A stretch of DNA of 64,000 bases, taken from NCBI GenBank assembly GCA_037379345.1, contig CM074513.1, positions 59,995,195-60,059,194 of the forward strand, written 5' to 3'. Under the pieces are notes generated by a model. That model saw nothing but the letters and a program-made list of their open reading frames with translations. It made no database searches and was not told the DNA's origin. The stretch is from Perna viridis. Lineage: Eukaryota. Of this stretch, positions 4,501-60,603 are shown piece by piece; within the stretch, counting starts at the first letter, position 1; each line of letters begins with the position of its first letter. A program made the translations under genes and the position numbers.

Positions 4501-7500
4501 AAATGAATTTTAGCATGCGGTAACAGGATAGCCAAGGGAGAAAACCATTTATCATTACTTACTATCACATCAGCATTGAGTGTCTTGCTAGGGAAAACCT
4601 ATATTTCAGATGCCACATTTTGTCCAAATGTATTCCAAGTTCAGCTCAGTAATTCCTTGTTTGAAGAATAACACTGTGAAGATATTTTATACCTGGGTAC
4701 CAATTTTCGTTGTTTCATGAAAAATTGTTCTAAACATTTTTATTGCTTTTACAAGTTGTTTAAATCAACACTAATTGCATTACTATTTATGATTACAACT
4801 GGTTTTAACCAGATCACCAACAAAGAAAAACTGACTAGCTTCTCAAGCTCTTCTACAGTAGTAACCCAGGTTAATAGTGCTGCAGACAAGTATGAAAAAA
4901 AGCGTTAGTTTTTGAGTTTAATGGGCCTAGAGAGTATACGGCTATATTATATGTCAATGGAAAGATAAATCAATGCAGTTTTTGAATATCCTTCCTTTTA
5001 AACTGAAAAGTGGTAGAGTTTTCTGCTATTTTGCATTAACTAGAGGTGAGGTCAAAGATCAATCGACCCCAATACCCTTTGATAAGTAATTTAAGTGAAA
5101 TAATTTATTGTAGATATGAGGAAACAAGTAACATGTAAAGGTCACATGTATAGAATTTCAAAAAATGTAAAAAGGAACTTTTTCTGTCGAAACTATTTAA
5201 TCACAGAATAAAATTGCCCCTAAAAATGGTTTTTGTATGTGCAAAAAAAAAGGTCTTTTCATCGAAACGTAAGGTAGACTTGATACTTTACATGTTCATA
5301 GAACAGTCTGGAAAGTAGACAAATTGTCCAGAAACAATTCTGTGTCGTACAATTTTAGTACAATTAATAGTTTATATATGTGAAAATATGCAACTTCAAA
5401 CTCATTTTGCAAAGCACATGTTGCAGATCGAATCGAGAAGGTTGTGTTTATTTTATTTGTAATTCAGTAAAGAATATTTAGATAAACATTGTAATATTCT
5501 ACGGTGTCTTATTATCTCTTAATCATTGAAAATGCACTAAAATGCAACCAATTTTAGGGACATTTTTGTTCTGTGATTAAATGGTCAACTTTTGACGGAA
5601 AAACTTCCTTTTTCACATTTTTGAAATTCTATACATATGATCTTTACATGTTACTTGTTTTCTGTTACTTACAATGAACGATTTCACTTCAATCACTCAT
5701 CAAAGTGTATTGGGGTCGATTGATCTTTGACCCCCTCCTTTAATTAATGCAAAATAGCAGAAAACACTAACACTTTTCAGTAAAAAAAGAATGATATTCA
5801 AAAATTACATTGATTTATCTTTCCATTGACATATGATACAGCCGTATACCCTCTAGGCCCAAAAAAGTTAGAAAAATCCTTAGCTGTGCGCAGCACTGTA
5901 ACTTAAGACTTTACTAAAAGAGCTTTTGATGTTACTCAGTGGTTATCGAAGGCCTTTAAATACAGACCAGATAGTTGGAACGGGAAATCACATGCAAAAG
6001 TAAACAACCCAGACCCTACTTGAAAATGAGATGACCTTTTTAGTACTTGTACAATTTAATTCAACTGGCATAAAATGAACACTTACAATTTACGGATGAC
6101 TTACACATAAAAAATTAAATATGTTTTAAGGGATTCACATTCATCTTTGAGAAATGCATGGTCATTTTGTTGGTCACCCTTTAGAAATATGTATGTCACA
6201 AAAACAAATCAACAGTGTCGGAGGTCAACATCCCATGGTCTGTAGGTTTTATTCATTGGATTCTTAAATTCATGGATTAGCCCACCAATGAAAGCAACAA
6301 AAATGTGTACCCAACGAACATTAATACTAGCCATGAGTGCTGGAGGTCATGGGTTCTATCCCCAACTGAGACTCACCAAAGACTTTAAAATTGGTAGTCC
6401 CTGCTTCTCCAACAAGCATGTGGTATTAATGGGGATAGACTGGTTTTGCATGCAGTTAATATAGTGTGCCGAATGGGATGGCATGCCTACCTACAACGTT
6501 TTTTAGCACAATAAAAATCCTGCTCAGCTTGTTGGACTAGTACTAAGTAGGGTCTGTTTGATTGGTTAATCATACTTCTCCTGAAATGCATGAAATATCT
6601 GCCAAAGTATGTTAAACAGCAATCAGTCAATCCTCAGATTTGACATATTTTTTCTTCTAATAATGTAGATTTAAATTCTCATGTAATATCAAGGTTTCAT
6701 GGATTTTTTTTTTTTTTTTTTTTTCAGAACAAAGTAGACGGGATGATTTAGAAGCATTAGGCCATATGTTTATGTATTTCCTTAGAGGAAGTTTACCATG
6801 GCAGGGTCTTAAAGCAGATACCTTAAAGGAAAGATATCAGAAAATAGGTGATACAAAAAGGGCTACACCTATTGAAGTTTTATGTGAAAACTTCCCAGGT
6901 ATTTATTATTGTGAACCACAGTTACATATTAAGCTGCTATGAGTACAGTTATAAGGAATCATTGTGGAAAACAAACGATCTCTTGAACTGTCAAATATGA
7001 TGGTAAAGACACTTTAAAAAATCATATAGTGTTCACAAATAATCAAATTAATACCATTAATAAGTTAGTGAATCTCTCTCTTAAATGTTTAGAAATTTGT
7101 CTAAAAAAATTTCATAATGACCAATTCAGAAACTTTCATCAAAGCAAAAAAGCTACATCTCTGTCAAATGTAGTAACACCTGCTAAACAGACCCACATGT
7201 TATTTGATTAGAATTCTTCTGACATTTTAAAAAAAAATCTACTTTTGGTAATGGTTAAACAAGGCATTCTTGGCCAATCCTGGAACTGTTTGAACGATAA
7301 AATTACTATGATTTAAAATAATGCTTGCCACAGATGAAATTATACTAAATAAAATTTAGCAAAAACAGTTAATGACATGAAAGGGAACCTACTCACACTA
7401 ACACCAGATGCCTTCCTCATATTACGACAAAAAATATCATACGATATCGTGTAGCTGAACTCTACTGAAGTCCAGCTACAGATATATATGATATTGTTTT

Positions 7501-10500: not shown

Positions 10501-13500
10501 ACTGCAGTTGTATTGAGCTGTGTGAAGCAATAGAATTAATTTACTTAGTGCCAGGGGTATCAACATCATATTGTTCCTGTTAGTAGGTGGAAGTTCTAGT
10601 CTATTTGAGAATGATTTATTGATCTTTTATTTATAATTTTTTTTTAATCATCTTTACAATTATTTTAAATTAGTTTGGTTGAAATCACTGTCAATTCTTT
10701 CTCAAACAGACTAGCACAGAAATTACTTGTATAATTTAGGGACATTGCTTCCAAGCTATTTTTTTTTTTTTCATTCTTTCATGATATCAGACATTTATTG
10801 ATCTTATCACATGATTGAAATATACTTGTCTTGTCCTGTCTGTGCCTTGTATCATTATCTTTCCATATCAAAGTTTATGGACTGGTTACTTTATGTATCC
10901 TAAGTATTGGAGATTGAAGAAGTGAAAAGATAATGAACCAAGACTTTGTTTTGACTAACATTATTTCTTTACTAATATATTTTAAGTAGAGAAAAGTCAT
11001 TCCTAAATCTTCACATAAAGTGGAATGAAATGAATCTATGAAATCATAGTTGTCTATAGCAGTCATCATTTATTACAACCAGTGATTTAGGAATGACTGT
11101 AGTTTCAGACTGTGTAATGTTAAAATTCCTGTTGTAAATCTTTCTCAGTTAGGTTCATGTAGGAAATGTTTGGTGACAAATGAGCCTTTTGTATTAGGTC
11201 CATTCTATAGTTAGCTGTGTTCCAGGAAAAGAAGCTGTCATCATTTTATGTCTTAAACAGTAACTGACATTCCATGACCTTTGCCCTGTCATATCGAATA
11301 CATGTAATTTATAAATATGGACGATAAGTTGTATAGTAGATTTCTGTAGCAATTTAATGTTGTTGCATATAAATTCCCCATATGTTAAACATCAACACAC
11401 TCTGCTTCTTACATATAGTATTGTTAACAGCTGTCAAATGATTCATCAATTTTAGATTTGTAGTTTTAATTATTTTGAGCATTGAAATGTTATGTATTAA
11501 AATATAAATTTAAATATGGACTTTTAATTGATGTTTAAGTTTGAAAAGTACAAGTGTAAGATACAGGCTATATTAGAAAAAAAAAGGGAAAGTAAATTGT
11601 AAATACCATGTGACGAGTGCCATATTGAACATCTTGTGATGCAAATATGGTATTTACGATGGCTAAGTTAATAATATTTGACAATTTACTGTGAGGTGCA
11701 ATATCAGTATGACACATTAATGTTGGACAGAAAGAAAATGTCTATTGAGGTGTGATAACAGTATGTCACATTAGTGTTGGACAGATAGACAATGTCTATT
11801 GAGGTGTGATTGGATAGATAGACAATGTCTACTGAGGTGTGATATCAGTATGACACATTAGTGTTTGACAGATAGACAATGTCTATTTAGGTGTGACATC
11901 AGTATGTCACATTAGTGTTGGACAGATAGACAATGTCTACTGAGGTGTGATATCAGTATGTCGCATTCGTGTATTTGAGGAATTCTTTAGTCTAAGTCAA
12001 TATTCATGACCTACTGACTTATTAATGTATGATGTATTATCTTTTAGTAACTTTGACTCATTATGGCCCAAAAAATAATAGTATCCACTTTGTTATGTCT
12101 AATACAGAAGACAGTGATGGCATTGAAATTCTGGAAATCCCAGAAATTGATCTTTTTTTCAATGTGGTCAAAATAACTTTAGGATCACCATAAAAAAGTC
12201 AGTTAGGTAACAGACATGATTTTCTTCTGGTTTAAAGCCGAATACCACTTTTTCAAATCTAAATTTAACCATTAAGGTCTTTTTTCTGCTGAACGCTTAC
12301 TTTGGATGGCAGCAATTTTTTTTTTTTTTTTTGGTTGGTTTTCTGAAATCATGTCTTGGGTAACAGGAAACAATGCTAATGTTTTAACATAGGTTTGCAA
12401 CTGTACACTGATGGTGTGTGTTACACTAACTCATTGGTTAGAATCTTCCACTGTTGGTGTGCTACACTGACTCGTAAGTTAACACCATCCAATGATAGTG
12501 TGCTACACTGACTCATTGGTTAGCTTCTTCCACTGTTGGTGTGCTACACTCACTCATTGGTTAGATTCTTCCACAGTTGGTGTGCTATACTGACTCATTG
12601 GTTAGATTCTTCCACAGTTGGTGTGCTACAATGACTCATTGGTTAGATTCTTCCACTGTTGGTGTGCTACACTGACTCATTGGTTAGATTCTTCCACAGT
12701 TGGTGTGCTACACTCACTCATTGGTTAGAATCTGCCACTGTTGGTGTGCTACACTGACTCATTGGTTAGATTCTTCCACAGTTGGTGTGCTACACTCACT
12801 CATTGGTTAGAATCTGCCACAGTTGGTGTACTACACTGACTCATTGATTAGAATCTGCCACAGTCATTGTGTTACACTAACTCATTGGTTAGCTTCTTCC
12901 ACTGTTGATGTGCTACACTGACTCATTGGTTAGATTCTTCCACAGTTGGTGTGCTACAATGACTCAATGGTTAGATTCTTCCACTGTTGGTGTGCGACGC
13001 TGACTCATTGCTTAGAATCTTCCACTGTTGGTGTGCTGCACTGACTCATACGTTAAAACCATCCATTGATAGTGTGCTACACTGACTCATTGGTTAGAAT
13101 CTTCCACAGTTGGCGTGCGATGCTGATTCATTGGTTAGAATCTTCCACAGGTGATATGCAACACTGGCTCATTGGTTAACATCTCCCATTGTTGGTGTTA
13201 GTGTGGCTGACACTTTTTGTAATTTGTTTTGTGAAGGGCAGTATTTGAAGACTATTAAGAAGCATGAGTGTTAATTAGGTCTAGGAATCATAGTAGGTAA
13301 CATAATATTTGACAGCTCTTACTTTCCCTGGGTTATGATGTAAACTGTTGTAACAAACCACTGAGATTGTCAACTAATTTGCCTTTCAGACAAGTACATA
13401 TCAATCAGGCAATGCATGGGGTGAGCCCCGGCACACGGGTAATTATCTGGGTGCCAACCTAGCTGCCGATAGACTTGGGGGATCTGTTCAGGTACGCATT

Positions 13501-16500
13501 TCGATAGTATTTGGTCATTGCCTTTTTTTTTGCTATTTTACTTTCCCCTTCTTGTTGAATGTACATAAGTTGCCTTGTTGTCTTTTAGTTGTGTAATAGA
13601 TCTTTAAATATTACATGATGTTGTCTGTCTAGTATTTATTGTTACCACCTAACATCTTCTTTCTCAAGTTATTTTTTATTTTAACATTCATTTTGGAGAA
13701 ATCATTTTCATATCATCATTGATTGATTTTCTATTTACTGTAAAATCTGCCATTAAAACTTGCTTTTCTTGCTACCTCTTTACCTTTTTTTGCAACCTGT
13801 AAACTTATAATTCACTACTGTGTCAAAAGGAATGTTATTATCGGTAATATTTTAAGATCTGACCTTGTCCCTTCTGTTGCATGATTACTCTGTGGTGTTA
13901 GGGTGTATTTGCTTGCTAAATGTGTTGCTACCTTATTAGATTCCAGACAAACGAGATTTACGCATGCGAGGACAGGTAAGGTCATTGTCTAATTGCACTT
14001 GCCAAAGACCACTCCCAATTCTGATCGACACAAAATTCTGTTGACAAATAATTGTAACGTTCCCATATCACTGGCACTAAGACTCTAGTTCATTCTGCAC
14101 TATTCTAAATGTTAAATTATAAAATTGATATGTATTTTTGTTTCAATTTAGTGACAACGTTGCCATTAGTATACTGGTTTTTACCATACAAAATATTCCA
14201 TTGTTCTTTTCAGTATTTTGAACTTCACTAGAAATTGTCTTAAAAACTGATGATTGTATTATTTCTACGCTCACCAAAATTTTTCATGGGTATCCCTCCT
14301 AGAATTGATACCTTGAACAGCAGTGTAAGCAGGTCTTGAAGCAATTCACTTAATCCTTCTGTCAGTCATGCTTAGGGGGGTATCTGCAACTCAAAAAGCA
14401 TTCAAACCTTGCGCACTGTTTATGTACATTTTGAAGATGTGCACCTGTTATTATGGAGAAATTTGATTATTTTTTATACAGTTACAAAAATTTGCAGTTG
14501 CATAATGGAATGCACTGTCAATTTCTTCTATGTAATCTGTTAATTTTCATGCCATAAGTTAAGAATTAATTGGTAATTCATTATAAAAATATACAAGATT
14601 TCAAACCACAGAATGGTGGTTGGTATTGAATTGAGGGGTTATGTCCCCAATCGTTTTGGAAATTAGGGACCAAACAAAACATTTCATATAATTAAGCTAT
14701 ATAACTGCAGTAAAAGGTTGTTAATAATAATATTCCACTATATATATTTCATTTAGGTCATACTGGTATTTAATTTTGGTGTCTAGTTTGAAGTGTCTAG
14801 GAGTGAGGGGTTAGAAACAAGCTTTTCTTCTGAAGTCCGGTCAATAAGTTGACTATAAGTGAATGGATTCTTAGGGATATTGTACAAAAGGGTGTCATAC
14901 CACATAAGTAAGGCTGGGACTCATTTTAGGTGTTGTGACTTGACCTATATCAGGAATTAGGGGCTTAAAAGTGTACTTGAATAACTTTAGTTAAATGGAA
15001 CGGATCTCTTTAGAACTGCACCACAATGTGCCATTCCCAGAAAGAAAGGTTATGATTATTTTTCAAGGGACTTGAACCTTATAGGAATTGTGGGCCAAAA
15101 AGTGGCCAATTCAATTCTGGTCAAATTCTTATTCTGTGTCAAATGTTTAATGGTAATCAAACTCTGAAGTTGTGTAAAGCTCGAATTGGGTGTCCTTGCT
15201 TGCTCCAGCTGTTCAGAGTTCCACCTCTGTAGTTGTATTAAGCTACACCCTTGGAAGTATTTTATTTTATTGGACATTATTGGCATGTTACACTTGGCCT
15301 TTTTTTGTCACCTTATGTTGCGGATGATTTGTGTTACCTGTATCTAAATTATTAAACTAATATTAGTCAAACATTGCATTGTGTTTTTGTTTTGTTATGA
15401 ATTAACATTTATATAATGAGAATAAAATGAAACAACCCCATGGGGATGAAAAATGTTAGCTTTAATGTACCACAAAGAAATGTATATTTCATTTTAGGAA
15501 ACAGATATTTACATATCTTAAGAGTTTTTCCTTTTAGTGTCACGTTTTGCTATCATTGTTGTTATTTCTGTGAATTAGTATTGTTATATTTATAGTTTAA
15601 ATCCAGATGTATTTTACTTCTACACCAAAAAATGCACATTTTGCTTTACGGCGTATTATATCAGGAAGGGTTCAATGCATGTACTGTGTGACATTGTTCT
15701 TGACTGCATCATTGCCTTTGAATTCAAACAGCATGATAATAATAGAGAGGTTTGCTTCAGATATCTGGATCTACTGCTCTGGTGTCTGCTCTAAGTGGCT
15801 TTTTCTGTTGTTAATTGTCTGAACTTTCTGATATTTAAGATATTATTGTTTTATCTATAAAAGAAAGTAAATTGTTATAGATTACATTTCTGAGAAACTC
15901 TGCATACTTTGGTTTTGTCTGCATTAAGTTGTTGTTGATCTGCTGAGCACAGACAGTGCTTAAAGTCATTCTTAAAGTTATTAAAACATTGACAGCATTC
16001 AGGAGCAGTATTTCTTTTATTTTTAGGTGGTGAACTCGACAAATGGAGACCTGAACCCTGATGATCCACAAGGTGCTCAATCTAATACACCTTTCAATAA
16101 CCAGGGACAGAGGGATGAGGATCAAAGTGAAACTAAGTAAGCAACATCGTTCTAATATTAGGTTTTATTTCAGGGACAGATACTATTATGGCTGTGGTTA
16201 TAGATTTGTTGTTGGTAGATAGAGTTTTATTTTAGCACCTTTAATCATGTTAATTTTAATTTACATTTTGATGAGAAATTGAATGAATAGATTGACCAAA
16301 CTACAAAAACTAAGAAAATTGTTACCCTTCAACGGTACATCAATATTATATAACAATTTCACACGTTACACATTTTATTAACCCATGTTCTTCAGTACCT
16401 TTATTATCTGCAGTTCATTACCTTCTAATTAAATTATTAAAATGAAATAATCTATCAATACTGTAGTTGTATAGTTGTACTACTTATATATTTAAATATA

Positions 16501-18292: not shown

Positions 18293-20443
18293 GTAATTTG
18301 TGGGAAGATTGATCAGTAGAATCTCTGTTTTCAGTATGGCACATTAAGGTGCACTGTTTGACAATAGGTAGAAATCATTTTATTATTGACATAATGTTTT
18401 AATGACCAGTTTTATGTGAAATAACAATTTTAACACTTGTTTTTGTGTTTTACCTGTAAAACCTAACATAAGAGTTTATAGGTCTCTCTGATACTGCCTT
18501 GTCTTTAAAAAGGTATAAATTTGAGCCTTTTAGAAAAAAAAATATTGATTATTGAGAGAGAAAAAAAACAATGTTTTGCATTATACTAAATATTATTTAT
18601 CTGAAATATCAGCAACTATATTATTCTGTCAACATTTGGATATAAGGAGATTAGTAGCTTAAAAAATTCTCCAAATATCTGTCTAGAATACAAGAATATC
18701 TGTTAAAAATCCCTCCAGAAATCTGAATATCTGTTTTGGAATGATTACTTTGACAGACAGAATCCGACCACCCATGCCAGAAGTACAGATAACAATACTG
18801 ATATTACAGCCTATGTTATATTTCTCTAGACTGCCTGTAATTATTTAATTTTTGTGAATATGTGTTTTTGATGAAATGTAATAATCAGGCATATGAAAGG
18901 GAAAATGTGTATTGTGTTTTTCTGTCAATTTATATTGCTTCACTGTTGATTGAATGGGTGAAAGTTTATTGTTATCTATTGTTAGTCACTTAGATAAAGA
19001 AGTATTATCTTTATTTTCATTATGTACAGTTGATGATTTGTGCATAAAAATAAAATATTCATTTTAGGATAATTCTTAGAGATGCTGTGCTCTTCATTGA
19101 ATAAAAGTCATATTTCTTATAAAACTAACATATCTTGTAGTGTTTTTATTGTATTACCGCGGTTGGTCGTATTATGGTATCAAGCTGTCGTCATCTAAGA
19201 CATTTGGTGTCCATACGATAACTTTATTATAAATGTGAAGATCTTTATGATACAAGATACCACACCACAAAGGATTTTGTGACTTGAAGCATTTAGGGTA
19301 AGGGGGCATTTTCCCAATGGCAAGATAATAAATTTCTTCTGCAATATCACAAAAGGAAGGCTTGGGTTGATTTTTGGGGTTGTGACTGGAATCATTCAGG
19401 ATTTAGGGGCTAATAAGAGGTCCTTCAGTTCTGGTCAATGTTATCCTGTGTCAAATACTTTATCACTGAATGATTAAAATTGAAATGTGTGCTACCCCAT
19501 TCCGGCAATCAACAGAGGGATCTAGAAAGACGAAGGGGCAACCTGTCCAATTAAGCAAATCACACCAAAACACAAGGTCATAGTAACTTAATTTGAGTAT
19601 TAGATGGTTGATCGATATAAAGAAAAATTAACAAGGTTTCAAACCACAAAGTGAAGGTTGGTGTTGATTATGGGGGTTAAGCATTTAGTGGGATTTAACT
19701 ATATAACGTCAATTAACGCATAGGAATTTCTATGATATTGTTCCACAATATTCTGTACCACAATGATCAGACTTGGATTGATTTTTTGGGGTAAAGACGA
19801 ACTTTTCAGAAATAAGAGACCAGAAACATGCGTTTTCCTTTTGTCCAGACAATAACTTGACTAGTAGTGAATGGATCTTTTGGAAATTGTATAACAAGGC
19901 GCCATACCACAGAAATAAGTATTTTTCTGATTTTTTTAAGATAGTTTATTTTAATATTGATTTTTTAATTTGTTATAAGATTCTTCATCTCCTACATTTT
20001 CAAGTTACAAAGGTTCTAATGGGACCGCACCTCCCAAAAATGGACTTTTTTATTGATGGTGCAATTTTTTTATTGGGATTCCTTATTAAAATCCTAGCCT
20101 AAATACAAGAGCTTAAAGAAGTATGCTTACCAAATTAGTCCTATCATTTACTGTTTTTGAGATAATGGGGTACCAAGCGATTTATGGATGCACCCTGAAG
20201 CAGACATTTATACTTCAATTAAATTTCAAAATATTGGGCAATATTGTGTCCATAATGAACTGTGAGTCCCCATGTTTAGTGTGTCAAAAACTACAAATGT
20301 AATATTGTGTCTACACTTGCCTCAAGTGAACAGAGTTCAACTGGTTGTAGTCGTATCATGCTGTGCACAGCGAAGCTTATTAATAAATATATGAAGAAAG
20401 GGGTCTGGTAAATTTGAGAACAAGGGGAAGTGGTTCTGTAATT

Positions 20444-22601: not shown

Positions 22602-23215
22602 CCATCTAATTACAGGCCAGTATCTTTAACACCTATCTGCTGTAAATTACTAGAGCACATAATATTTAGCGTCGTTATGAAACACTTTGATGCCAATAAG
22701 ATCTTAATAGATACGCAACACAGATCCAGGAAATGTGAATTCATGTGAATCACAGCTCTTACTAACAGTCGACGACCTTGCTTCAAGCTTGAACAAAAAC
22801 CAACAGGTGATTGTGATACTTTTGGACTTTAGTAAAGCTTTTGATAAGGTCCCTCACCAACGATTATTGACAAAGATCCAGCACTACGGCATTAGAGATA
22901 ACATCAATGACTGGATAAGAGATTTCCTAGGTGGACGAAAACAAGAGGTTGTACTAGAGGGCAAACATTCAGCATCATCGGATGTCATCAGGATATGGAA
23001 TGCCTTGCCAGACAGACTAGTTGTTGTACCCACACTAAAGGCATTCAAAGTGGGAATCCTGACAGCAGAGTAGACGAACTTGAATTTTAACTGTATATAC
23101 AGATTCTTTTAAATGTGCAGTCCTTTGTCACCGTACGTAAATAGTGTACATAGCCGAGTTCGACAATACTCAGACATCTGAGGGATGAACATTATAGGAA
23201 GAAAAAGAAGAAGAA
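22602..23215 (+). mobile_element. CR1-type LINE relic, 5'-truncated with a large internal deletion, 3' hairpin and (GAA)n tail
   Basis: PSNYRPVSLT.ICCKLLEHII, SCESQL and LDFSKAFDKVPHQRLL jump directly to IRIWNALP; hairpin ctcag-acat-ctgag then gaagaaaaagaagaagaa. Confidence 0.85.
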
Positions 23216-24108: not shown

Positions 24109-24506
24109 TTATGTTGCTACAAGATTGAAGTCATCACTACAGAAGTTTTATGGTCGTTATCATGAACTCGTGGATCGTTATGGTGTATCCATCAGCACCA
24201 TGAAAACTGATTTATTCAACGGGTCATAGTTTTCCTTCCCTCGTTTGTCTATCCCGGACTTGACTTTTTATGAGCAACTCGGCGGGTGTTTCTAGAAAAG
24301 CAGAGGACGTTTACCCTACCGGTGCACCTGGTCCATGCTCCCAGTTTTTAGTGGAGTCCGAGTTGCTCATTTACTTTTGTTACTTTGTATGTATGATTTT
24401 AGTTACTTTATGTTCTTTGTTGTGTATGTCTGTTTCCATGTCTGGTCTTTGTCCCTGGATTACATTCTTTTGATTACCGCTATAACCTTGGTTCCCTTGA
24501 TTACTC
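24109..24506 (+). mobile_element. Penelope-like element 3' fragment, copy C (intergenic, best preserved)
   Basis: YVATRLKSSLQKFYGRYHELVDRYGVSISTMKTDLFNGS* followed by the shared 3' UTR. Confidence 0.8.
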
Positions 24507-25089
24507 CTTGACATTGACCTGTAATTGAAGGTCTTGAATTTATTGGTGTATTAGTCCCTTGTCTGTACGACTTGCGGCTCTTGAATTTTTACATACATAT
24601 TTTTAAAAATAGTTGAATGTAATTACGACCGTAAGATTCGTTAACAATTTTGAATGCTTTCGCAGTTTATCGTTATCGTTATTATTTTCATGTTAAAATG
24701 TTGATTGGGCCATTTTCCTCACCAGCTACACAAGCCTGGCTTGATGTCCTCAGAATAACTATTTTTGTATGTCAATTTATGTTTATTTTGGAAAATCATA
24801 TGAAAACCATACTCTTTTCGTAGGTGACATATAAATACCAAATGCCTTTTATTTAATTGTGTTTCGTGAATTACTTTGTTAGTTAGAAACATATGTTTTT
24901 CAGGTGATTCCAAACATACGAAAAACATATTTTGTAACTTTTCCTGTTTTTATGTATATTAACATTTATGAGCATCTTTTATGTAAATGGAATCGTTTTT
25001 CAGATTGGTTCTTCAAGATAAAGGCCAATGAAACAAATTGCAACAAGATGGCATATCTTCAAGTACATGTGAAATCCGTGTGTTCATGA

Positions 25090-30400: not shown

Positions 30401-33400
30401 AGTGAATTCTAAATATACCACCCCTACTTCTGTCTAGACAGGCTTAGTCTTGATACACATTGGTTTATAAACTCAATAAATTGGGATAAAGCACAAATGG
30501 TTTTCAGTAAAATCCCTTGATAAATTCTGAAAAAGTCTGATTCAAGTCAGTGTTTGGGAATGTAAGGAATAGAAAGATAGGTTCATTTAGATTGAATATC
30601 AACATACATTTGTACTATTACATTCACACATTATTAATACATTCACATCACAATATCAATACATTCGTATTATAACATAAATACACTCATACATTACTGA
30701 ATTCACATTTGTATTGATACTTAAAATATTAACTACCCAAAAATTTATGTAGGCCAATTGTTAAAAATCAAAGTTTTAGCCATAATAGTATGTAAAAAAG
30801 GTTGATATTTAACCTAGGGTATCCCATAAAACCTTTACTGCTTATTTCCAATGGGATCCTTTATAGCAATTCAGGCTAAAAAATAAAAATGAACAATGTG
30901 ACAGACACATAATTTAGGCAGGCTTAGTTAAATATAGAAAATAAATTTACATAGTGAGGTCACTAATAAAATTTTCCTTCATTTGATCAAAAAGATACTT
31001 TTTGACACCAGTTTTGAAATTATTAATATTTTTGACTTTTTCAAATTCCTGTGGCACAGTTTTCCAATCTCTTACAGCATTGTAGTAAAAAGTATTAGAT
31101 GAAGTACAAAACAAATGAGTTAATGAAGAAATTTTGTCCATTGTTTATATTACTGGCCTATATAATACAGTGTTCTAGCTAGGATTTGAAAATAGAGGAG
31201 GGGGGGGCAGGGAAGAGAGCACCTTATCATGTAGCATGCTTTTTTTAAACCAAAAAGGGACATTAATCTTAGTTTTTTAAGATTTATGTTTGCATTTAGT
31301 CAAAAATATCTTCATTCATTTTTTTCTTTTCTTGTATGTTTGTATTCTTATTACATACCTACCAACTTTTGAAAATGAAGGTGGGACAATGTGTGAATGG
31401 GCAGTGTTGCATCATATTTTGCTATTTTTCTCAACATAGGTACATTCATTTAGTCATGATTTTATTGTTATTCAAAGCACACTTAACATTAATACTCATT
31501 GCCATTCAGCGGATTTTTCTCTTTCATTTGATATTAAATTAATTTTAATAAATGCAGTAGTTATCACAAACATTCAATGACAAATCATACTTCATGAACC
31601 TTTAAAAAAGTGAATTTTTTGCTTACTTGTCTAAAAAGACCTACTGTAATTTTGAAATGGAAAATATTTATAATCCTCTTATTTTAAATAAATAAAAAAT
31701 ATATGTTGCCATTCTCCAGTCTTTTAGCTTTAATTTTGAATATCACTCATCAAAATCTGTCCAGTGGTTAAATACCCTTAGTAAAGTTATCCTATTTTCA
31801 ACAGAGAAATTTTAGAAAATTGGCTAATAAACAGCCAAATAGCAATGGCAGTGTTCTATATAGATTATTACCAGTAACTTCTCCCCAATCAGACCTACAT
31901 TGTAAATTATAGATTATTACCAGTAACTTCTCCCCAATCAGACCTACATTGTAAATTATAGATTATTACCAGTAACTTCTCCCCAATTACAATCAGACCT
32001 ACATTGTAAATTATAGAGGTAATCAGACCTACATTGTAAATTATAGATTATTACCAGTAACTTCTCCCCAATCACAATCAGACCTACATTGTAAATTATA
32101 GATTATTACCAGTAACTTCTCCCCATTCACAATCAGACCTACATTGTAAATTATAGATTATTACCAGTAACTTCTCCCCATTCACAATCAGACCTACATT
32201 GTAAATTATAGATTATTACCAGTAACTTCTCCCCAATCACAATCAGACCTGTAAATTATAGATTATTACCAGTAACTTCTCCCCAATCACAATCAGACCT
32301 GTAAATTATAGATTATTACCAGTAACTTCTCCCCAATCACAATCAGACCTACATTGTAAATTATAGATTATTACCAGTAACTTCTCCCCAATCACAATCA
32401 GACCTGTAAATAATAGATTATTACCAGTAACTTCTCTCCAATCACAATCAGACCTGTAAATTATAGATTATTACCAGTAACTTCTCCCCAATCACAATCA
32501 GACCTGTAAATTATAGATTATTACCAGTAACTTCTCCCCAATCAGACCTGTAAATTATAGAGGTAACCAGTAACTTCTCCCCAATCACAATCAGATCTGT
32601 AAATTATAGAGGTAACCAGTAACTTCTCCCCAATCACAATCAGACCTACATTGTAAATTATAGAGGTAACCAGTAACTTCTCCCCAATCACAATCAGACC
32701 TACATTGTAAATTATAGATTATTACCAGTAACTTCTCCCCAATCACAATCAGACCTACGTTGTAAATTATAGATTATTACCAGTAACTTCTTCCCAATCA
32801 CAATCAGACCTACATTGTAAATTATAGATTATTACCAGTAACTTCTCCCCAATTACAATCAGACCTACATTGTAAATTATAGAGGTAACCAGTAACTTCT
32901 CCCCAATCACAGTCAGACCTGTAAATTATAGAGGTAACCAGTAACTTCTCCCCAATCACAATCAGACCTGTAAATTATAGAGGTAACCAGTAACTTCTCC
33001 CCAATCAGACCTGTAAATTATAGAGGTAAACAGTAACTTCTCCCCAATCAGACCTGTAAATTATAGAGGTAACCAGTAACTTCTCCCCAATCAGACCTGT
33101 AAATTATAGAGGTAACCAGTAACTTCTCCCCTATCAGACCTGTAAATTATAGAGGTAACCAGTAACTTCTCCCCAATCAGACCTGTAAATTATAGATTAT
33201 TACCAGTAACTTCTCCCCAATCACAATCAGACCTGTAAATTATAGATTATTACCAGTAACTTCTCCCCAATCAGACCTGTAAATTATAGAGGTAACCAGT
33301 AACTTCTCCCCAATCACAATCAGATCTGTAAATTATAGAGGTAACCAGTAACATCTCCCCAATCACAATCAGACCTACATTGTAAATTATAGAGGTAACC

Positions 33401-36400
33401 AGTAACTTCTCCCCAATCACAATCAGACCTACATTGTAAATTATAGATTATTACCAGTAACTTCTCCCCAATCACAATCAGACCTACATTGTAAATTATA
33501 GATTATTACCAGTAACTTCTCCCCAATCACAATCAGACCTGTAAATTATAGATTATTACCAGTAACTTCTCCCCAATCACAATCAGACCTGTAAATTATA
33601 GATTATTACCAGTAACTTCTCCCCAATCACAATCAGACCTACATTGTAAATTATAGATTATTACCAGTAACTTCTCCCCAATCACAATCAGACCTGTAAA
33701 TAATAGATTATTACCAGTAACTTCTCTCCAATCACAATCAGACCTGTAAATTATAGATTATTACCAGTAACTTCTCCCCAATCACAATCAGACCTGTAAA
33801 TTATAGATTATTACCAGTAACTTCTCCCCAATCAGACCTGTAAATTATAGAGGTAACCAGTAACTTCTCCCCAATCACAATCAGATCTGTAAATTATAGA
33901 GGTAACCAGTAACTTCTCCCCAATCACAATCAGACCTACATTGTAAATTATAGAGGTAACCAGTAACTTCTCCCCAATCACAATCAGACCTACATTGTAA
34001 ATTATAGATTATTACCAGTAACTTCTCCCCAATCACAATCAGACCTACGTTGTAAATTATAGAGGTAACCAGTAACTTCTCCCCAATCACAATCAGACCT
34101 ACATTGTAAATTATAGATTATTACCAGTAACTTCTCCCCAATCACAATCAGACCTACGTTGTAAATTATAGATTATTACCAGTAACTTCTTCCCAATCAC
34201 AATCAGACCTACATTGTAAATTATAGATTATTACCAGTAACTTCTCCCCAATTACAATCAGACCTACATTGTAAATTATAGAGGTAACCAGTAACTTCTC
34301 CCCAATCACAGTCAGACCTGTAAATTATAGAGGTAACCAGTAACTTCTCCCCAATCACAATCAGACCTGTAAATTATAGAGGTAACCAGTAACTTCTCCC
34401 CAATCAGACCTGTAAATTATAGAGGTAAACAGTAACTTCTCCCCAATCAGACCTGTAAATTATAGAGGTAACCAGTAACTTCTCCCCAATCAGACCTGTA
34501 AATTATAGAGGTAACCAGTAACTTCTCCCCTATCAGACCTGTAAATTATAGAGGTAACCAGTAACTTCTCCCCAATCACAATCAGACCTGTAAATTATAG
34601 AGGTAACCAGTAACTTCTCCCCAATCAGACCTGTAAATTATAGAGGTAACCAGTAACTTCTCCCCAATCAGACCTGTAAATTATAGAGGTAACCAGTAAC
34701 TTCTCCCCAATCAGACCTGTAAATTATAGAGGTAACCAGTAACTTCTCCCCAATCAGACCTGTAAATTATAGAGGTAACCAGTAACTTCTCCCCAATCAG
34801 ACCTGTAAATTATAGATTATTACCATTAACTTCTCCCCAATCAGACCTGTAAATTATAGAGGTAACCAGTAACTTCTCCCCAATCAGACCTGTAAATTAT
34901 AGAGGTAACCAGTAACTTCTCCCCAATCACAATCAGATCTGTAAATTATAGAGGTAACCAGTAACATCTCCCCAATCACAATCAGACCTACATTGTAAAT
35001 TATAGAGGTAACCAGTAACTTCTCCCCAATCACAATCAGACCTACATTGTAAATTATAGATTATTACCAGTAACTTCTCCCCAATCACAATCAGACCTAC
35101 GTTGTAAATTATAGATTATTACCAGTAACTTCTTCCCAATCACAATCAGACCTACATTGTAAATTATAGATTATTACCAGTAACTTCTCCCCAATTACAA
35201 TCAGACCTACATTGTAAATTATAGAGGTAACCAGTAACTTCTCCCCAATCACAGTCAGACCTGTAAATTATAGAGGTAACCAGTAACTTCTCCCCAATCA
35301 CAATCAGACCTGTAAATTATAGAGATAACCAGTAACTTCTCCCCAATCAGACCTGTAAATTATAGAGGTAAACAGTAACTTCTCCCCAATCAGACCTGTA
35401 AATTATAGAGGTAACCAGTAACTTCTCCCCAATCAGACCTGTAAATTATAGAGGTAACCAGTAACTTCTCCCCTATCAGACCTGTAAATTATAGAGGTAA
35501 CCAGTAACTTCTCCCCAATCACAATCAGACCTGTAAATTATAGAGGTAACCAGTAACTTCTCCCCAATCAGACCTGTAAATTATAGAGGTAACCAGTAAC
35601 TTCTCCCCAATCAGACCTGTAAATTATAGAGGTAACCAGTAACTTCTCCCCAATCAGACCTGTAAATTATAGAGGTAACCAGTAACTTCTCCCCAATCAG
35701 ACCTGTAAATTATATAGGTAACCAGTAACTTCTCCCCAATCAGACCTGTAAATTATAGAGGTAACCAGTAACTTCTCCCCAATCAGACCTGTAAATTATA
35801 GAGGTAACCAGTAACTTCTCCCCAATCAGACCTGTAAATTATAGAGGTAAGTATTGATGTTTAATAGACCACCCCTTTTTCAGTCAATAAAATTCACAGA
35901 TAAAAACTGTATTATAAAATAAAATCAGGTTTATTATGGTGAAAATTCATTTTATTTATTTCTGAGTTATTGAACTGTAATACTCTAAAAAGGTAGGTAT
36001 TTTTCATGTCGCATCATGAAGTGAGAATGCCTTATTTGCTTAGTTGTTATCTTAAGGCCTGTATACTTTTTGATAAAAATCCTTATTTTGTTCACAAGTT
36101 ATGGAAGTTATACAGTTTGCTTCCTATTGAGATACAACAATGTAGGTGTATCATGTGTCGTTAATGTAGCTATTTATTGTTTACTATTATTTGTGAATGT
36201 ATTTGCCTTTTTCATATCACCGCAAAAAAAAATTTTTTTGTACCCTTCATAAACAAAGTTGTATATTGTTTCACCCTGTCTGTCCATCCGTCTTCGTCTG
36301 TTCGTTTGTCTGTCCACACTATTTTCTAAGCCCCTTGCAGCATTGTTATGAAACTTTGTGGGTTGTAATATAACCACATGAAGATGTGCATACTGTCAGG

Positions 36401-39400
36401 TATTTATTTTTGGACAAAAGTTGTAGAAATGACGGCTGTTGAACATTTTTCAGCAAAACTTGGTCTGATGTGTTGTCTGCAACTCCTCCTCAAAGACTTG
36501 TAGGACTATTATTGAACTTATTGGGGTGTTATATCATATTAGGATGTGCATATTGTCAGGAATATATGGGCAAACATTGTAGAAGTGACGGCTGTTGAAT
36601 TAAGGCATTTTTCATAACAACTTGGTCTAATGCCTTGTCAACTTGCATGATTAGTATGAAACTTAATAGGGTGTTATATTACAGTATTGGGGTGTACAGG
36701 AATTTATGTTAAAAGTAAATTTCCATTTATATTCTGTCATTGTGTTGTCAACAACAAAAAATAGTACTTAAATTGTGTGTCCACATTGGTCCAAAAATGT
36801 TGTGCAATATTGTGTTAAACCAGTCGTTGTGTCCATTATGAACTGTAAGCCACTATGCTTAAGTGTGTCAAAAAACTAATATTGTGTTTACACACTCCCC
36901 AAGTGAACAGAGTTCAATCTGTGGTCATATCATGCTGCACTCTACAAAGCCCTTTAGTATGATAAGTCATACAGAAAACCAAATTGTAATGTATTCCAAC
37001 ATATGTTACTAGGCTAAAACTAGGATGTATATATTATATACTACATGTACTGGCAATCAATACACTATCGCTTGACAATAAACAAAGTTATTTGCAGATG
37101 GGACAAAAACAGGACTTATTGCTTACTTCTTCCATACCGGTATATGAATATTTCCAGCTATGAAATTAACTTTCTGCTTTTTTATTGGAAATAGAATGAA
37201 AACAACTGACTACTATTTTCAATGGTAATGGCCAATAGCCAGAAATTCTAATATACAAATATATATTTCCTACTTTTGGACTTGATTGGTGAAAAAAGTA
37301 TTAAAGTATCACACTGTCAAGTACCCCATTACATTTGTATTTGTTTTAAAACAACTGTTTAGAGATTGAAGATTTAATAAATAGTGTCATCTTTTTATCT
37401 ATGACAGTTTAACCAGGGTAGGAAACTCACTCAAATTCTAGCCGGTCCTGAATACAATTTTTCAACATATTTTCTATATGACTATATAGATTTTTGCTTA
37501 AATTAACCACCCCTGCCAAAAAATAACCAGTCTCGGGGTGGCGGGCAGGCTACTATTTCTAACTTTGGCTTAACTGATCTTAATACTCCATACTTTTTGT
37601 AATAAGAACACTCTGATTTTGATCTTTGTTTTAGGTATATACTAAGTATTGAAACTGCTGAAGATTTAAAGGAATACATGTTAGAATTACTGGATGGCAC
37701 TAACCCACAGGTTCACAAGTTTATACATGAGTTATTAGAAAAGTGGGACCCACCAGAGAAAGGAAGTCAAAGAATATTCGAGGTATTAATGAAAAAAAAT
37801 GTGATCTACATCAGTGTTCTCCATGAGCTATGTTAGCATGGTGCGCCGCCATGAGTTTAAAAATCAGTGCCATGGTTAAATTGATGTCTGCCATTATTAA
37901 ATTTCAATTACCATTATCGGCCTACAGAGAACCCCATCAGTTACTGATTCAGAAGCCAATCTGAAGATAATTACGACATTGGTCGGAAAATAGAGAAGAA
38001 AATAGAAAGAAAAAATTCCCCAAGTTTAAATATAGTACCAATAGAATGATGAAGAAAACTGGACTTTTCAACTAGATGCACATGCTTTGACCCATATCTG
38101 TCCACATTCAATGACTGTACATGGGGTTTCTGTCAATAATGAACTTCTTGTTAAAATCCCTCCCCCATGTCAACTTCTCGGATTCATGCACATACATCAA
38201 TGTACTTTTGCACCTAAATGTATATGCTGGTTTCATTACAGTGACTTCCTGAAAATTATCAACAATTTCTGGCCAGAGTAATAGTCATTATAAATGCTAA
38301 AAAATGACAGTAACAACAACTAGAAAACATACGAGACAACAAAAATAAAAACATTTAAAATGATTTTATAGAGTTTAGTAAAAACAGTGAAGAATTTATT
38401 TAATATATTCAAAAATATATATATGCAAAAACTGAAAAATACAACTATAAAAATATGCAATTGTTTAATGTTACACATTGTCATTGTCAAGATGTCATCT
38501 TAGTAGACATTGCCAGCCTTGATGGTTTTGTCCTAGCATGCAGGCCTTTATCAGAAGAGGTCAAAGGTTTGATCTCCAGATGAGCGGTACGAAAGACTTA
38601 AAAATTGCTAGTCACTAATTTTCTCCTGTTACATGTCCAAGATTTATATTTCTCTATGCAGGTTGACAAAGTTTTGACCGGCCTAGTTTTCTAGTTGGAA
38701 AAACCTGGGTTTACTAGGGTTGGGCTAATGGGTAATGTGTTTTTCAAGCTTATTCAAACCACTAATGGATAAAACATTTTATTATTTCATTGTATTATCA
38801 CTTAATAAATACACTATATATACAGAAACATTAAATGTAACAAGTTCACCTGTCAATTTCATCTTTCCTCACAACATCCTGAAACAGAATACAAGTTTTG
38901 CACCTTTTTGTATGCTAGTTGTATATTCACTTCATTTCATTAATTAGGACCCTGTCTTGAAAACTGGCAGACACCTTATTGTAAACAGCCTGACTGTCAG
39001 TCCATCTGTCCATAACACACAAAGTTTTTGTTTTGATTTATTACCAGTCGGAAAATATCTGCCATTACTATTAATAGAACATATGGGTCAAACAGCAGTT
39101 TTTTGCATATATCTTCCAAACCATTAGATTTAGCCAAATTGTGACTGGATTAAAGTGTTCAGCATGGCTAGATCTATATGTGGTTAAATTTTCATGAAAT
39201 TCTGTTAAGCCATATTGGATTTGTTGCCTTTTTACACGACCCCAAAAACATATACAATATAATTGGTATATACCGGTAATTGTATGGCACTTTCGTCCAA
39301 TTTGTATTCATCCGTAGACACATGGTTTTTGTGTGACAACTACAATATTAATCAGTCGATCTTTATAAAATTTTATAACAAGGTTCAAAATCACTTAAGA

Positions 39401-42400
39401 AGGTTGTTATTTTGGAGGTTATGGCCCCAACCGTTTTTGAATTAGGACTCCTAAAGGGACCAAAAAGAAGCCTTTCATAGAATTTAACTATTGAGTTCCA
39501 GTAACAGTATAGGAATGTCTATGATATTGTTCCACAATTGTCAGACTGGTTTTGATTTTGGTGGTTAAGAGTGGAACATTTTAGAATAAGGGCCCAAAAG
39601 GAGAGCCAGAAACAAGCATTTTCCTTATGTTCTACCGATAACTTGACTAATAGTTAATGTATATCTTGGAAATTGTATTACAAAATGCCATACCATCAAA
39701 GAAAGATTGTGATTGATTTTGGGGGTTACGACTTGAACCTTCTTTGGATTAGGGGCCAAAAAGGGGCCTTGAAACAACTATTTTCTGTATGTCCAGACAA
39801 CAACTTGAGTAATAGTGAATGGATCTCTTTGATATTGTATTGCAATATACCATATTACAAATGGAAAACTGGAATTGATTTTAGGGGTTGTGATGACTGC
39901 AGTAAGAATAAGTAAGGGGCCACAAAGGGACCAAGGGCGAACTTCGGTAAAAGGGAATGGATCACTTCAAATTAGTACTACAAGATGCCATAGATTAAAG
40001 ATTGAAGTTTTGACTTGAACCATTAAAATAAGATAAGAAGACTTTATTTTGATTTGGCATGCCATAAATACAGACACAAGTTCTAAGGAGCTTTTGACGG
40101 AATATAAAACAACAACATAACATAAAACAAGGCAAGAACACATACACACAAAGCAATTCATATAATAAAGCATAAAATAAGCATAGCATGCAAATGTTAA
40201 AACATGATAATATAACAGAGAACTAAGCATAAGAATATATAAACATGCAGAAACTAAATTTAAAGCAGAGGTACTATTATTCAAGTAGAAGCCGAACAAA
40301 ACGTATGTGTAAAATAAGCATGATATATACCATTAAGGATCAAAGGGCTAAAAAGTAACCACTTTGGCTCTTGCCAGGTTTTTTACCTGTGTCAAATATC
40401 TAATCAACATTCAAAGCTGTATTAAATTTGACTCCCCCCAACTGTTCAGGGTTCAACCTCTGCAGTTGTATCAAGCTCTGTCTGCCAAGCATTTTATTTG
40501 GATGTTGTTTTTTTTGCTATTTCTGATGGTATTACTTTAAAAAATCTTCTCCTGTAAAACAACTGGACATAATTCAATGAAAGTTGGTACATGTATGATT
40601 GTTCTATCCTGCAGAAAGGTAATGTTTTGATTTTAGGTCCATGAAATAATTTACACATTTACAAAAAATAGAATGTAGCTTATTAAGCCATGAGATGGAC
40701 TAAAGCTCTTTAGAGCCTCTAGTTGAATTATGACTTTACAATACAAATATTACATTTACCCAGTATTGTCCATTGATGTCCAGTAAAACCAAGGTTTTTC
40801 CAGTATTGTCCATTGATGTCCAGTAAAACCAAGGTGTTTCCAGTATTGCCCATTGGCCTGGACAATACTCATAAAACCAGGGCTTGTGACTATGTCTCTA
40901 ATTGCACATATTCCAGGGTTCTTCCATTCTGTTACTCATCCCAGAGTGATTTTTATATGCTTGTCTTTCTTTATTTCTTGATTGGAACTATTGTTTGTTT
41001 GTCCACTGAATATTCACACATTGCACAAATTAAAACAATTCCAACATTTTTCATGACACTTTGGTGATTTGTTTCTTTCTATTGATCTTTCAATTATGAT
41101 TAAATCTGAAGTAATGGAACTTTATTCATAAAAAGAGGATGATTTCATCTTTGGAATATAACTCAAAAGTGCTTGCACCCATTTTAATTAAACTTTGGGA
41201 AGTAGTTTATTTCTATTGAATCAAGTTCCCTTATTTTACATTTTTTAAGGTTTAAAAGGTTTAATATACATGAACTTCAATTACTAGAAATGAAACTATT
41301 TAATGCTTTCTCACTTTTTCAGGTTTACAGAAAACCAGCTTTAGGAGAAGAAAATGAATCTCTTAAAAAAAGGGCAGAAAAATCTAGCAAAAAGTCAGAA
41401 CATCCCAAGAAAGTGCATGTAAATGGGAATGTAAATAATTCTGCTGTAAGTTGATATGGGTTACCTGTTATTGTTGATATGGGTTACCTATTATTGTTGA
41501 TATGGGTTAACTGTTATTGTTGATATGGGTTAACTGTTATTGTTGAAATAGGTTACCTTTTATAAGCTTCCCTGGCCTTTAGTGGTTTTCTGTCAACTTT
41601 TGTTAAAAAATCTTCTTCTTTGAAACTACTGGACACATTTTAATGAAAGTTTGCATGAATTTCCTGAGACTATTCTGCACAAAAACTGTGTTAGGATGTT
41701 TATCCTTTAAAAAAAGCATGGCTGTCATATCTTTATTATATGACCACAAAAAATTAGAGTTGTATATTGGTATAGTGCTGTTGTTGTTGTATTTGTTGTC
41801 CATGTTGTCCTCCGTAGACACTTGGTTTTCACACAGTAACTTTAGTTGTGATTGACAAAATTGTAATGAAATTTTGATATGATTTTACTAACCACTAAAG
41901 GAAGGTTCCTCTTTAATTTGGAGTTTTTGGCCCCTACCATTTTAGAATGAGGGGCCATCATCATCATCACTAACAATTTTTTAAAACGTTTCTCCTCTGA
42001 TGCTACTTGAATTGTTAGGCAGATGGGCGGGTAAAATATTTTTGTAACATTTTTCTCATCAGTTATAAATCACAGCCACTAGATATTTGGTTTGCATCTT
42101 TAGTATGGAGTCCCATATCTTGGGATGTGATTTCAGGTCTTTTGTACTTTTACTTCCTGTTTTATGACTGTGTTATTTTTTCAACATTTCTTGTCAGATG
42201 CAAAGTTGGCAACCTGTTCATTTCTGTATATGACACATTCTTAGAGTAATTGTCCTTAAAAGGCAAAAATCTACGTTTTTTTTTGTAGTTTTAACCAATG
42301 TCTTGAAGTCACAATAGATAGAAAAATACTTTCAATTGATGAAATGATTTTTAAGAGTATGTATGGGTTGAAGTTGTTGGACAAATCCTTGTTGAGTTAT

Positions 42401-57128: not shown

Positions 57129-57256
57129 TCTGTGATAAAGACAAGAGTTATCTTTCCTATGTGATCATAATACAAATATTCTGTTTTAACTGACAAAAGT
57201 TCTATTATTGTGCAACAAATCAAAACTGCATGGTTCCCATTAGTTAAGATTAATAG

Positions 57257-57566
57257 GGTCCATAGAAACTGCCGAACTTCTTAGATATGGTAAAAACTGG
57301 TCCATAGAAACTATCAAACTTCTTAGTTACGGTAAATACTGGTCCATAGAAACTATCAAACTTCTTAGTTACGGTAAAAACTGGTCCATAGAAACTATCA
57401 AACTTCTTAGATATGGTGAAAACTGGTCCATAGAAACTATCAATCTTCTTAGTTACGATAAAAACTGGTCCATAGAAACTATCAAACTTCTTAGATATGG
57501 TAAAAACTGGTCCATAGCTGTCAGAATTCTTAGTTATGGTTAATTTGGTCCATAGAAACTGTCAAA
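57257..57566. repeat. 42-bp tandem repeat x~7.5 in the probable TRIP4 3' UTR
   Basis: ggtccatagaaactatcaaacttcttagttacggtaaaaact. Confidence 0.92.
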
Positions 57567-59978: not shown

Positions 59979-60497
59979 TTTTAGCTCACCTAGCCGAAGG
60001 CCATGTGAGCTATTGCCATCGTCGTCCGTTAACAATTTTTCAAAAATATTCTTCTCTAAAACTGCTGAGCGGAATTATATGAAACTTTGCACAGATGTTC
60101 CATATAAGGGTATCTTGCCCAAAAGATGTGTTCTAATTTTTTATCCGTTCAAAAAAATTGGTCGCCAATACTGAAAATAGAACATAGGGGTCAGACAGTA
60201 GTTTTTCGCAAATATCTCCAAAACCGTTACGTTTAGCCAAACTCTTTCAATTGCTGAAATGATCCTTATTATAAGGCCTTCAAAAGTGTTCGGGGATCAA
60301 AGTTGTCTGGCGACTCCTTGTAAGATTATTGCCTTTGAAAGATGAAAAATGACGGGTTTTTTTTACAGTTTTCAGTCAATACTAATATCTGGAAAACTAT
60401 GATAGAAAGAAAGAAACTTTCAAGTGCAGAAATGATCCTTATGATAAGTCCTACCAAAGTCTTCTTGAGCCAATATTGTTGGACAACTCCTTGTTCA
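59979..60497 (+). mobile_element. Helentron-type non-autonomous element (GCTCACCT family), interrupted
   Basis: ttttagctcacctagccgaaggccatgtgagctattgccatcgtcgtccg. Confidence 0.65.
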
Positions 60498-60603
60498 AGA
60501 GTAATCAAGGGAACCAAGGTTATAGCAGTAATCAAAAGAATGAAATCCAGGGACAAAGACCAGAATTGGAAAACAGACATACACAACAAAGAACAAAGTA
60601 ATC
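60498..60603 (-). mobile_element. Penelope-like element extreme 3' end, copy E
   Basis: agagtaatcaagggaaccaaggttatagcagtaatcaaaagaa, identical to the copy D terminus. Confidence 0.75.

Follow-up and report, generated by a model that had tools for sequence, protein, structure and literature searches.

What occupies, in Naiad Penelope-like elements, the place in which Penelope elements carry a hammerhead ribozyme? The question is raised by a compact RNA motif at positions 24270-24370 of the window, i.e., the whole stretch of 64,000 nucleotides of Perna viridis DNA analysed here, in which an earlier note had recognised a three-way junction with a pseudoknot and a possible functional replacement for the hammerhead. 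The study that defined Naiads (PMC8557442) searched for hammerheads and SECIS only; its available text reports no canonical hammerhead in these elements and describes no other 3' structure.

The motif and its host element

The host is a Naiad Penelope-like element, as the earlier note had proposed, and the motif is located in its 3' UTR/pseudo-LTR. Naiads are defined by an N-terminal GIY-YIG domain, CxC, GxKF/Y and DKA in place of DKG (PMC8557442, available text), and the N-terminal GIY-YIG, CxC and DKA are all present in long copies. In the frame of L058, residues 38-126, lying N-terminal to the RT, match GIY-YIG in Pfam (E 0.0012; 19.6 bits for a cut-off of 22.6), while the 5' end of L063 encodes a CxxC finger and a GIY-YIG motif, and the 759-aa ORF of L055 holds CxC, the GxKF/Y motif (as GPKY) and DKA for DKG. 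By eye, the N-terminus of the host is closely like that of Naiad_Tgra. The marks of insertion are also of Naiad type, with 5' truncation, partial tandems bearing a pseudo-LTR, inverted 5' pieces and a tail of 30-40 nt. Tail repeats of 38 nt are found in copy D of the window, at whose end (52442-52595, minus strand) the final 36-38 nt of the element are repeated about four times in succession. In L063, a pseudo-LTR, a full ORF and a second pseudo-LTR follow each other, with the motif in both repeats. A 31-base word taken from the 3' end of the element has 11,211 exact matches in a 723-Mb animal genome (G000).

The Naiad copy that contains the motif (copy B) is truncated at its 5' end at about 24109, and P1 begins 41 nt past the TAG stop of its ORF (24227-24229). 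The features of this copy and the other copies of the window are as follows, with pairing values taken from the alignment of 13 rows presented in the next section.

24109-24229, + strand: end of the ORF of the Naiad, coding for the RT thumb; its C-terminus is that of the 759-aa ORF of L055
24270-24282, + strand: P1 5' arm; 10 of 13 pairs change on both sides, 70.6% of cells paired
24283-24288, + strand: P2 5' arm, near-invariant; 98.7% of cells paired, four of six pairs never vary
24289-24298, + strand: palindrome 1, 10 nt, self-complementary up to the centre and predicted to form a helix between two molecules; 100% paired in the 13 chosen rows, with compensatory changes in all 5 of its pairs
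24299-24303, + strand: junction with CAG (24301-24303) in invariant alignment columns, these letters being fixed in the pattern with which most rows were found
24304-24308, + strand: pseudoknot 5' strand; 93.8% paired, 5 of 5 pairs compensatory
24309-24316, + strand: core GCUYACYC, defined by its conservation; candidate catalytic or protein-binding nucleotides
24318-24323, + strand: palindrome 2, 6 nt long here and 6-8 nt in relatives, predicted to form the second helix between molecules; 89.7% paired
24325-24330, + strand: P2 3' arm, from base pairing
24331-24335, + strand: pseudoknot 3' strand, directly 3' of P2, from complementarity
24337-24357, + strand: P3 hairpin (24337-41 with 24353-57) with a variable loop and compensatory pairs; 64-77% paired, the automatic alignment being out of register at P3
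24358-24370, + strand: P1 3' arm, from base pairing
24371-24511, + strand: remaining 3' UTR up to the fixed end of the element, about 140 nt past P1
285-388, + strand: second full motif copy (A), more decayed, within an element copy spanning 1-527; 63.8 bits
52695-52795, - strand: third full motif copy (D), within an element copy at about 52442-53083; 91.5 bits
20444-20634, - strand: partial old copy, about 80% identical, beginning inside the motif
60495-60601, - strand: partial short copy, truncated 3' of the motif

The stems drawn in the earlier note hold in this copy. All 13 pairs of P1 (24270-82/24358-70) are Watson-Crick, P2 as then delimited (24283-89/24324-30) pairs at 7/7 positions with two G-U, and P3 pairs at 5/5 positions with one G-U; the seventh pair of P2 is in competition with palindrome 1. 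The proposed pseudoknot is borne out by the complementarity of GGAC (24305-08) to GTCC (24331-34) and by compensatory changes among families, its length being 4 bp in the window family and 5 bp in most families. The motif had also been said to recur at 285-388 and 52695-52795, where full copies are indeed present, and the gctt reported in copies A and D reflects a deviation of copy B itself, in which position 24310 is T, in contrast to the C of 60 of 62 young copies (0.97). The inner aagc/gctt hairpin stood as far as pairing goes (94%), but it changes on one side only, without compensatory change. The C of CAG (24301) is predicted to pair with G24309.

Folding of single copies gives moderate support only, and the case rests on the comparison across families. 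The minimum-energy fold of copy B contains P1 and P3 without the proposed P2, that of copy D contains P1, P2, P3 and the small hairpin, and the z values against 200 shuffles are -2.8 for copy B (4/200 as good), -1.6 for copy A (15/200) and -4.6 for copy D (0/200).

Several other features were observed in the window. A non-LTR RT fragment, CR1/L2-type by eye, lies just upstream of the Naiad copy (22711-23073, plus strand), and a host exon-like frame, zinc-finger/coiled-coil-like by eye, leads into a 51-bp coding-frame tandem repeat (47361-47939, plus strand; 47550-48801). A diverged repeat of about 150-170 bp forms scattered arrays, as is typical of satellite-bearing mobile elements, at 14835-15114, 19209-19934, 39337-39995, 50568-50975, 55644-56832 and 58028-58883. 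Minisatellite arrays (units of 41, 43-55, 31, 42 and 36 bp) occur with a palindromic micro-repeat, which gives spurious microRNA matches in Rfam, at 12293-13289, 31859-35947, 44684-44911, 49666-50448, 57215-57550 and 61427-62202. Finally, a MITE-like inverted repeat with arms of about 320 bp each is present at 4909-5874.

Covariation across families and the two palindromes

An older family of G000 displays the same fold with different stem sequences; the flanks of its members (L065-L094) are mostly devoid of ORF remnants, and poly(T) expansions are seen in the P3 loop. A scan of metagenome contigs with a pattern fixing P2 and the core only returned at least 124 loci, and the 124 matches listed were split by flank GC into 91 animal-like and 33 GC-rich ones, the former coming mostly from one assembly and few families and thus not being independent. 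A Naiad thumb is found upstream in 22 of the 124 matches listed, none of these 22 being GC-rich. At least four of the five pseudoknot pairs can form in 74 of the 91 animal-like matches listed, versus two of the 33 GC-rich ones and none of the 70 pattern matches in prokaryote genomes, which equally lack CAG in place and score at best 18 bits with the motif model; these matches served as negative controls and give no sign of a bacterial homologue. The six pattern matches in viral contigs are all chance-like by eye, and a Naiad protein relative was not found in these contigs. The GAAC/GTTC variant mentioned in the earlier note does exist, since GAACT/AGTTC is present in 33 of the 91 animal-like matches listed. 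A recurring motif copy with a changed pseudoknot strand (L428:1479-1604 and L435:1479-1604) is cut after the P3 5' arm and fused to other sequence; with about ten near-identical matches, it is probably carried by another repeat.

Published consensus sequences extend this distribution. In File S5 of PMC8557442, at least 11 of 54 Naiad sequences carry the motif in their 3' UTR by eye, which is a lower bound because the exact-word search is blind to variants and line breaks. As far as the available part of this file allows, with names taken partly from file order, the carriers comprise two elements of Clytia, five of bivalves, three of hemichordates and one of a fish; all 11 keep both palindromes and 10 of them have a 5/5 pseudoknot, again by eye. 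Two further blocks were seen in the available part of the same file: the two Clytia records share a GC-rich block upstream of the motif, with apparent stems and possibly a structured RNA, and a nematode record has a further GC-rich 3' block.

Covariation was evaluated on an alignment of 13 rows for different families or subfamilies, all found with patterns fixing P2 and the core, and partly hand-picked after the palindromes were noticed. Across the full structure, 27 of the 39 pairs change on both sides, and the structure score amounts to 0.465 versus 0.199 for shuffles (0/500 as high, a result that relatedness of the rows may inflate) and 0.07-0.14 for slid partners. Of the helices for which the earlier note had made covariation the criterion, P3 and the pseudoknot show compensatory changes, as does P1; P2 is paired almost throughout but is nearly invariant. 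The strongest covarying feature, absent from that first reading, consists of two conserved palindromes inside P2.

Palindrome 1 is formed by the 10 nt following the P2 5' arm and is palindromic in every family examined, with sequences that are unrelated among families (e.g., CCACTAGTGG, TGACCGGTCA and TTGCATGCAA). Eight different central 4-mers occur in the 13 rows, and pairing is maintained through the two innermost pairs. It is fully paired in 55 of the 91 animal-like matches listed versus 0/33 and 0/33 chance matches, and 2.9% of the time when shuffled. Palindrome 2 is formed by the 6-8 nt before the P2 3' arm (e.g., TCCGGA, CCATGG or GTCGAC) and is paired in 64 of the 91 animal-like matches listed versus 2/33 and 5/33 chance matches. 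On the plus strand, G-U pairs outnumber A-C mismatches 16 to 3, and this excess on the sense strand argues for a structure of RNA, not DNA. Dyad sites acting at the DNA level, or a chance structure copied along with the repeat, are very improbable and may be regarded as largely refuted. Palindromes can be protein-binding sites in DNA and copies within one young family are not independent; however, the palindrome sequences are wholly different between families and tolerate G-U, the pseudoknot and P1 covary across phyla, and chance matches to the core pattern come without these features.

Since both palindromes are self-complementary to the centre, which would be needless in a hairpin, and the two innermost pairs of palindrome 1 are impossible in one, the motif RNA likely pairs as a dimer, i.e., with a second copy through the two palindromes. 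Predicted energies for palindrome 1 range from -8 to -19 kcal/mol for the self-duplex versus 0 to -1.2 kcal/mol for the hairpin, these values applying to single helices only, as the dimer helices cross and place the whole dimer outside folding. A parallel for this two-copy pairing is offered by Penelope hammerheads, reported to be dimeric, whose palindromic helix III is too short for a monomer and extends between tandem copies (PMC4209133 and PMC6765202, available text).

From these comparisons, the motif is a real, deeply conserved and apparently undescribed RNA fold in the slot that holds ribozymes in other Penelope elements. In agreement with the earlier note, which had taken the motif for a candidate undescribed one, no Rfam 15 family is found at the motif in the window with E up to 5, and a search of copy D with E up to 10 gave only two irrelevant weak matches. 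The fold is not described in the literature covered by a full-text search (with few subscription journals and outside Repbase and Dfam notes), nor in the available text of PMC5737381, PMC10085705, PMC7761336 and the retrozyme preprint 10.64898/2026.07.22.740005.

The slot before the fixed 3' end

Where the motif lies with respect to the ends of the element was examined in 106 copies from 90 loci, selected by the 3' word alone. Ninety-five of them end between +239 and +246 from the P1 start, 41 at +241, and their 5' ends show no peak, cleavage-linked or other, within the motif (24 of 99 measurable ends fall inside, with at most two per position). With a fixed 3' end downstream and scattered 5' ends, the motif is neither the end of the element nor a preferred truncation point. 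In three presumed-RNA contig sets, relative depth is higher 3' of the motif, a difference that carries no weight because contigs are devoid of end, strand or level information. In Poseidon, the sole Penelope element for which in vitro work exists, the hammerhead is cut 26 nt inside the ORF, and the start sites of reverse transcription lie at 111-118, followed by the tail, i.e., about 85 nt or more after the cut site (PMC11167929, available text). The Naiad motif precedes its fixed 3' end by about 140 nt, a distance like that of the Poseidon hammerhead. The earlier suggestion that the motif fills the place of the hammerhead is upheld by this like position, and also by the presence, at the same place in a sister clade, of a twister-like fold.

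Among the published Naiads, four from mussels and clams (Mgal, Bpla, Mphi and Scon, as far as their available sequences go) lack the motif by eye and have a twister-like fold in the slot. A second Naiad family with this fold was found in G000 through 653 exact matches of a 16-base word.

L446:1416-1540, L460:1416-1540, L483 and others (653 places in G000): examples of the twister-like fold

A Naiad thumb lies within 400 nt upstream in 18 of 39 of these loci, and a common 3' end is found about 131 nt past the word in 20 of 30. Compared feature by feature with the twister consensus (PMC5408937, available text) and with a canonical twister in G000, the sister fold would be a type-P5 twister-like RNA with two palindrome-like segments in place of P1. 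Between the published families, compensatory changes are seen by eye in the T2 and P4 pairs of the available sequences. When loci were selected by the loop only, 16 of 25 had the N/AA-P2-T2 strand versus a background of 0.7%, about half of the loci being duplicates. The crude counts for the palindrome (12/25 versus 40%) and P5 (15/25 versus 57%) are not above background, and the sister fold is not detected by Rfam models. Twisters in Naiads are not described in the literature covered by the full-text search (same scope as above). A canonical-looking type-P1 twister was also observed at L470:1510-1570 (G000:C3:2746868-2746916), which is the best match of the Twister-P5 model with 22.1 bits, below the cut-off.

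The two folds are mutually exclusive in six UTRs, two of family I with the motif only and four of family II with the twister-like fold only. In a tree rooted at midpoint, the proteins linked to the two folds by best hit fall in separate clades, the six motif-linked ones grouping together with a support of 96/92, and the RTs lying over the motif and over the twister-like fold are 54% identical. This exchange suggests that the pairing or the cutting of two pseudo-LTRs is under selection. It also bears on the main alternative, which we consider unlikely although worth serious attention and in which the motif would be a non-catalytic element for dimerisation and RT docking. The palindromes would then pair two pseudo-LTRs or two transcripts like a retroviral dimer-initiation site, and the core would bind the telomerase-like RT, determining where reverse transcription invariably begins as well as the template jumps behind partial tandems. 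The covariation and the palindromes speak for such a role too, and the 3' end fixed about 140 nt downstream and the lack of cleavage-linked ends among genomic copies are also in line with it. Moreover, the Poseidon protein is a predicted dimer that needs the RNA region containing the hammerhead and is required for its cleavage, and this cleavage is dispensable for insertion in vitro (PMC11167929, available text), so that the slot may be kept for another reason. However, related RTs over unrelated folds in one slot are hard to square with a sequence-specific dock and would be expected of exchangeable ribozymes; in addition, some Naiads appear to have neither fold.

A candidate dimeric ribozyme and its comparison with known RNA classes

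We place slightly below an even chance the reading that we favour, namely that the motif is a dimer-dependent self-cleaving ribozyme of an undescribed class in the Naiad pseudo-LTR/3' UTR. Counted in its favour are the covariation, the palindromes, the L063 tandem, the position before the fixed end and the twister-like fold in the slot. Since Naiads insert as partial tandems, a transcript that begins in the upstream pseudo-LTR, crosses the ORF and reaches the downstream pseudo-LTR would carry the motif twice. The palindromes of the two copies would form helices of 10 bp and 6-8 bp, by which a junction of four helices would be completed at the distal end of P2. The CAG-pseudoknot-GCUYAC strand would dock against P2 and P3, possibly those of the partner copy, the invariant letters would form the active site, and the assembled core would cut both copies. 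The product would be an RNA of unit length or one able to circularise, and the cutting may require the protein of the element. No known catalytic core is matched in full by the motif, and there are earlier candidates, taken from locations rich in ribozymes, that did not cleave (PMC6765202, available text).

Somewhat more tentatively still, the motif may be an obligate strand-swapped dimer ribozyme, forming a new class with tens of thousands of copies from cnidarians to fish. If this is true, Naiads would not be ribozyme-free and would exchange at least two non-hammerhead ribozymes, cutting only when two pseudo-LTRs meet. To our knowledge, only about ten classes of natural self-cleaving RNA have been found so far, and the addition of one from animal genomes would be a rare event. 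Even without cutting, the motif would be a cis-acting RNA of deep conservation that partners the RTs most closely related to that of telomerase.

Other roles or origins were considered. We regard as quite improbable a translation or stability element, IRES-like or exonuclease-blocking, which would act in the 5' leader of tandems about 240 nt before the AUG. A three-way junction with a pseudoknot is the outline of exonuclease-resistant viral RNAs, and L063 does have a motif upstream of the next ORF. An IRES-like role has also been proposed for the HDV-like ribozymes of R2 and L1Tc (PMC6765202, available text). Nevertheless, this role would leave unexplained two obligatory palindromes and the exchange with a twister-like fold.

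A rearranged or reduced known ribozyme, most plausibly a twister-sister-like one cut at GCUY/AC (24312/24313), is improbable too, if a shade less so. The (G)CAG and GCUYA letters of the motif resemble loop L1 of twister-sister (G5 C6 A7 A8 G9 and G59 C60 U61 C62 A63 U64), where the cut takes place at C62/A63 and C62U is tolerated (PMC5660989 and PMC11620745, available text), and seven conserved letters match once A7, missing in the motif, is dropped; the order of helices also resembles type-P1 twister. However, twister-sister needs helix P2 between the L1 strands as well as SL4 and has no pseudoknot, whereas in the motif both are absent and the two strands are joined instead by the 5-nt strand of a covarying pseudoknot. 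Furthermore, three of the 13 rows have A or C at the equivalent of G5, a nucleotide without which twister-sister is inactive, the geometry of the pseudoknot would favour the C24301-G24309 register, and no Rfam ribozyme model scored.

Twister of type P5 shares with the motif a similar helix order and a P2 that encloses a hairpin whose loop pairs past P2; the motif differs in being devoid of the N/AA strand and of the P4/L4 signature and in having one pseudoknot instead of the two, T1 and T2, of twister (PMC5408937, available text). A twister descriptor remained empty in both family-I UTRs, with no Rfam twister match. A SECIS element, whose marks are a non-canonical AUGA/GA quartet, an apical AA and a UGA in frame within the ORF, was rejected as the AUGA at 24270 is unconserved and pairs by Watson-Crick with UCAU, the 759-aa frame of L055 runs without a stop and Rfam gave no match. 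The pistol ribozyme has a similar AG-pseudoknot-GC order, but its G/U cut site has no consistent counterpart in the motif. Neither hatchet nor a template like that of telomerase RNA, both considered, found further support, and an alternative pairing of GGGUG with YACYC is possible by letters, with no covariation by which to judge it. In HDV-like ribozymes two pseudoknots are nested, and the fold includes P1.1, P4 and a joiner holding the catalytic C, while in the motif the pseudoknot 3' strand comes right after P2, the position where P1.1 would lie varies, and P1.1, P4, the catalytic-C joiner and an Rfam match are all absent. With the HDV-like ribozymes of R2 and L1Tc (PMC6765202, available text), the motif shares a retroelement UTR, a compact pseudoknot and a GGGUG helix that starts with G-U.

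The hammerhead itself was set aside on either strand, as the CUGANGA/GAAA core is unmatched in the two family-I UTRs (2/2) and no Rfam match was obtained. The motif is unlike the Penelope hammerhead in having a pseudoknot and two palindromes instead of one. It shares with it the place in the pseudo-LTR, a palindromic segment that lengthens into an inter-copy helix and the tandem arrangement. The novelty would thus reside in the fold, its likely job being already known from the hammerheads of Penelope elements.
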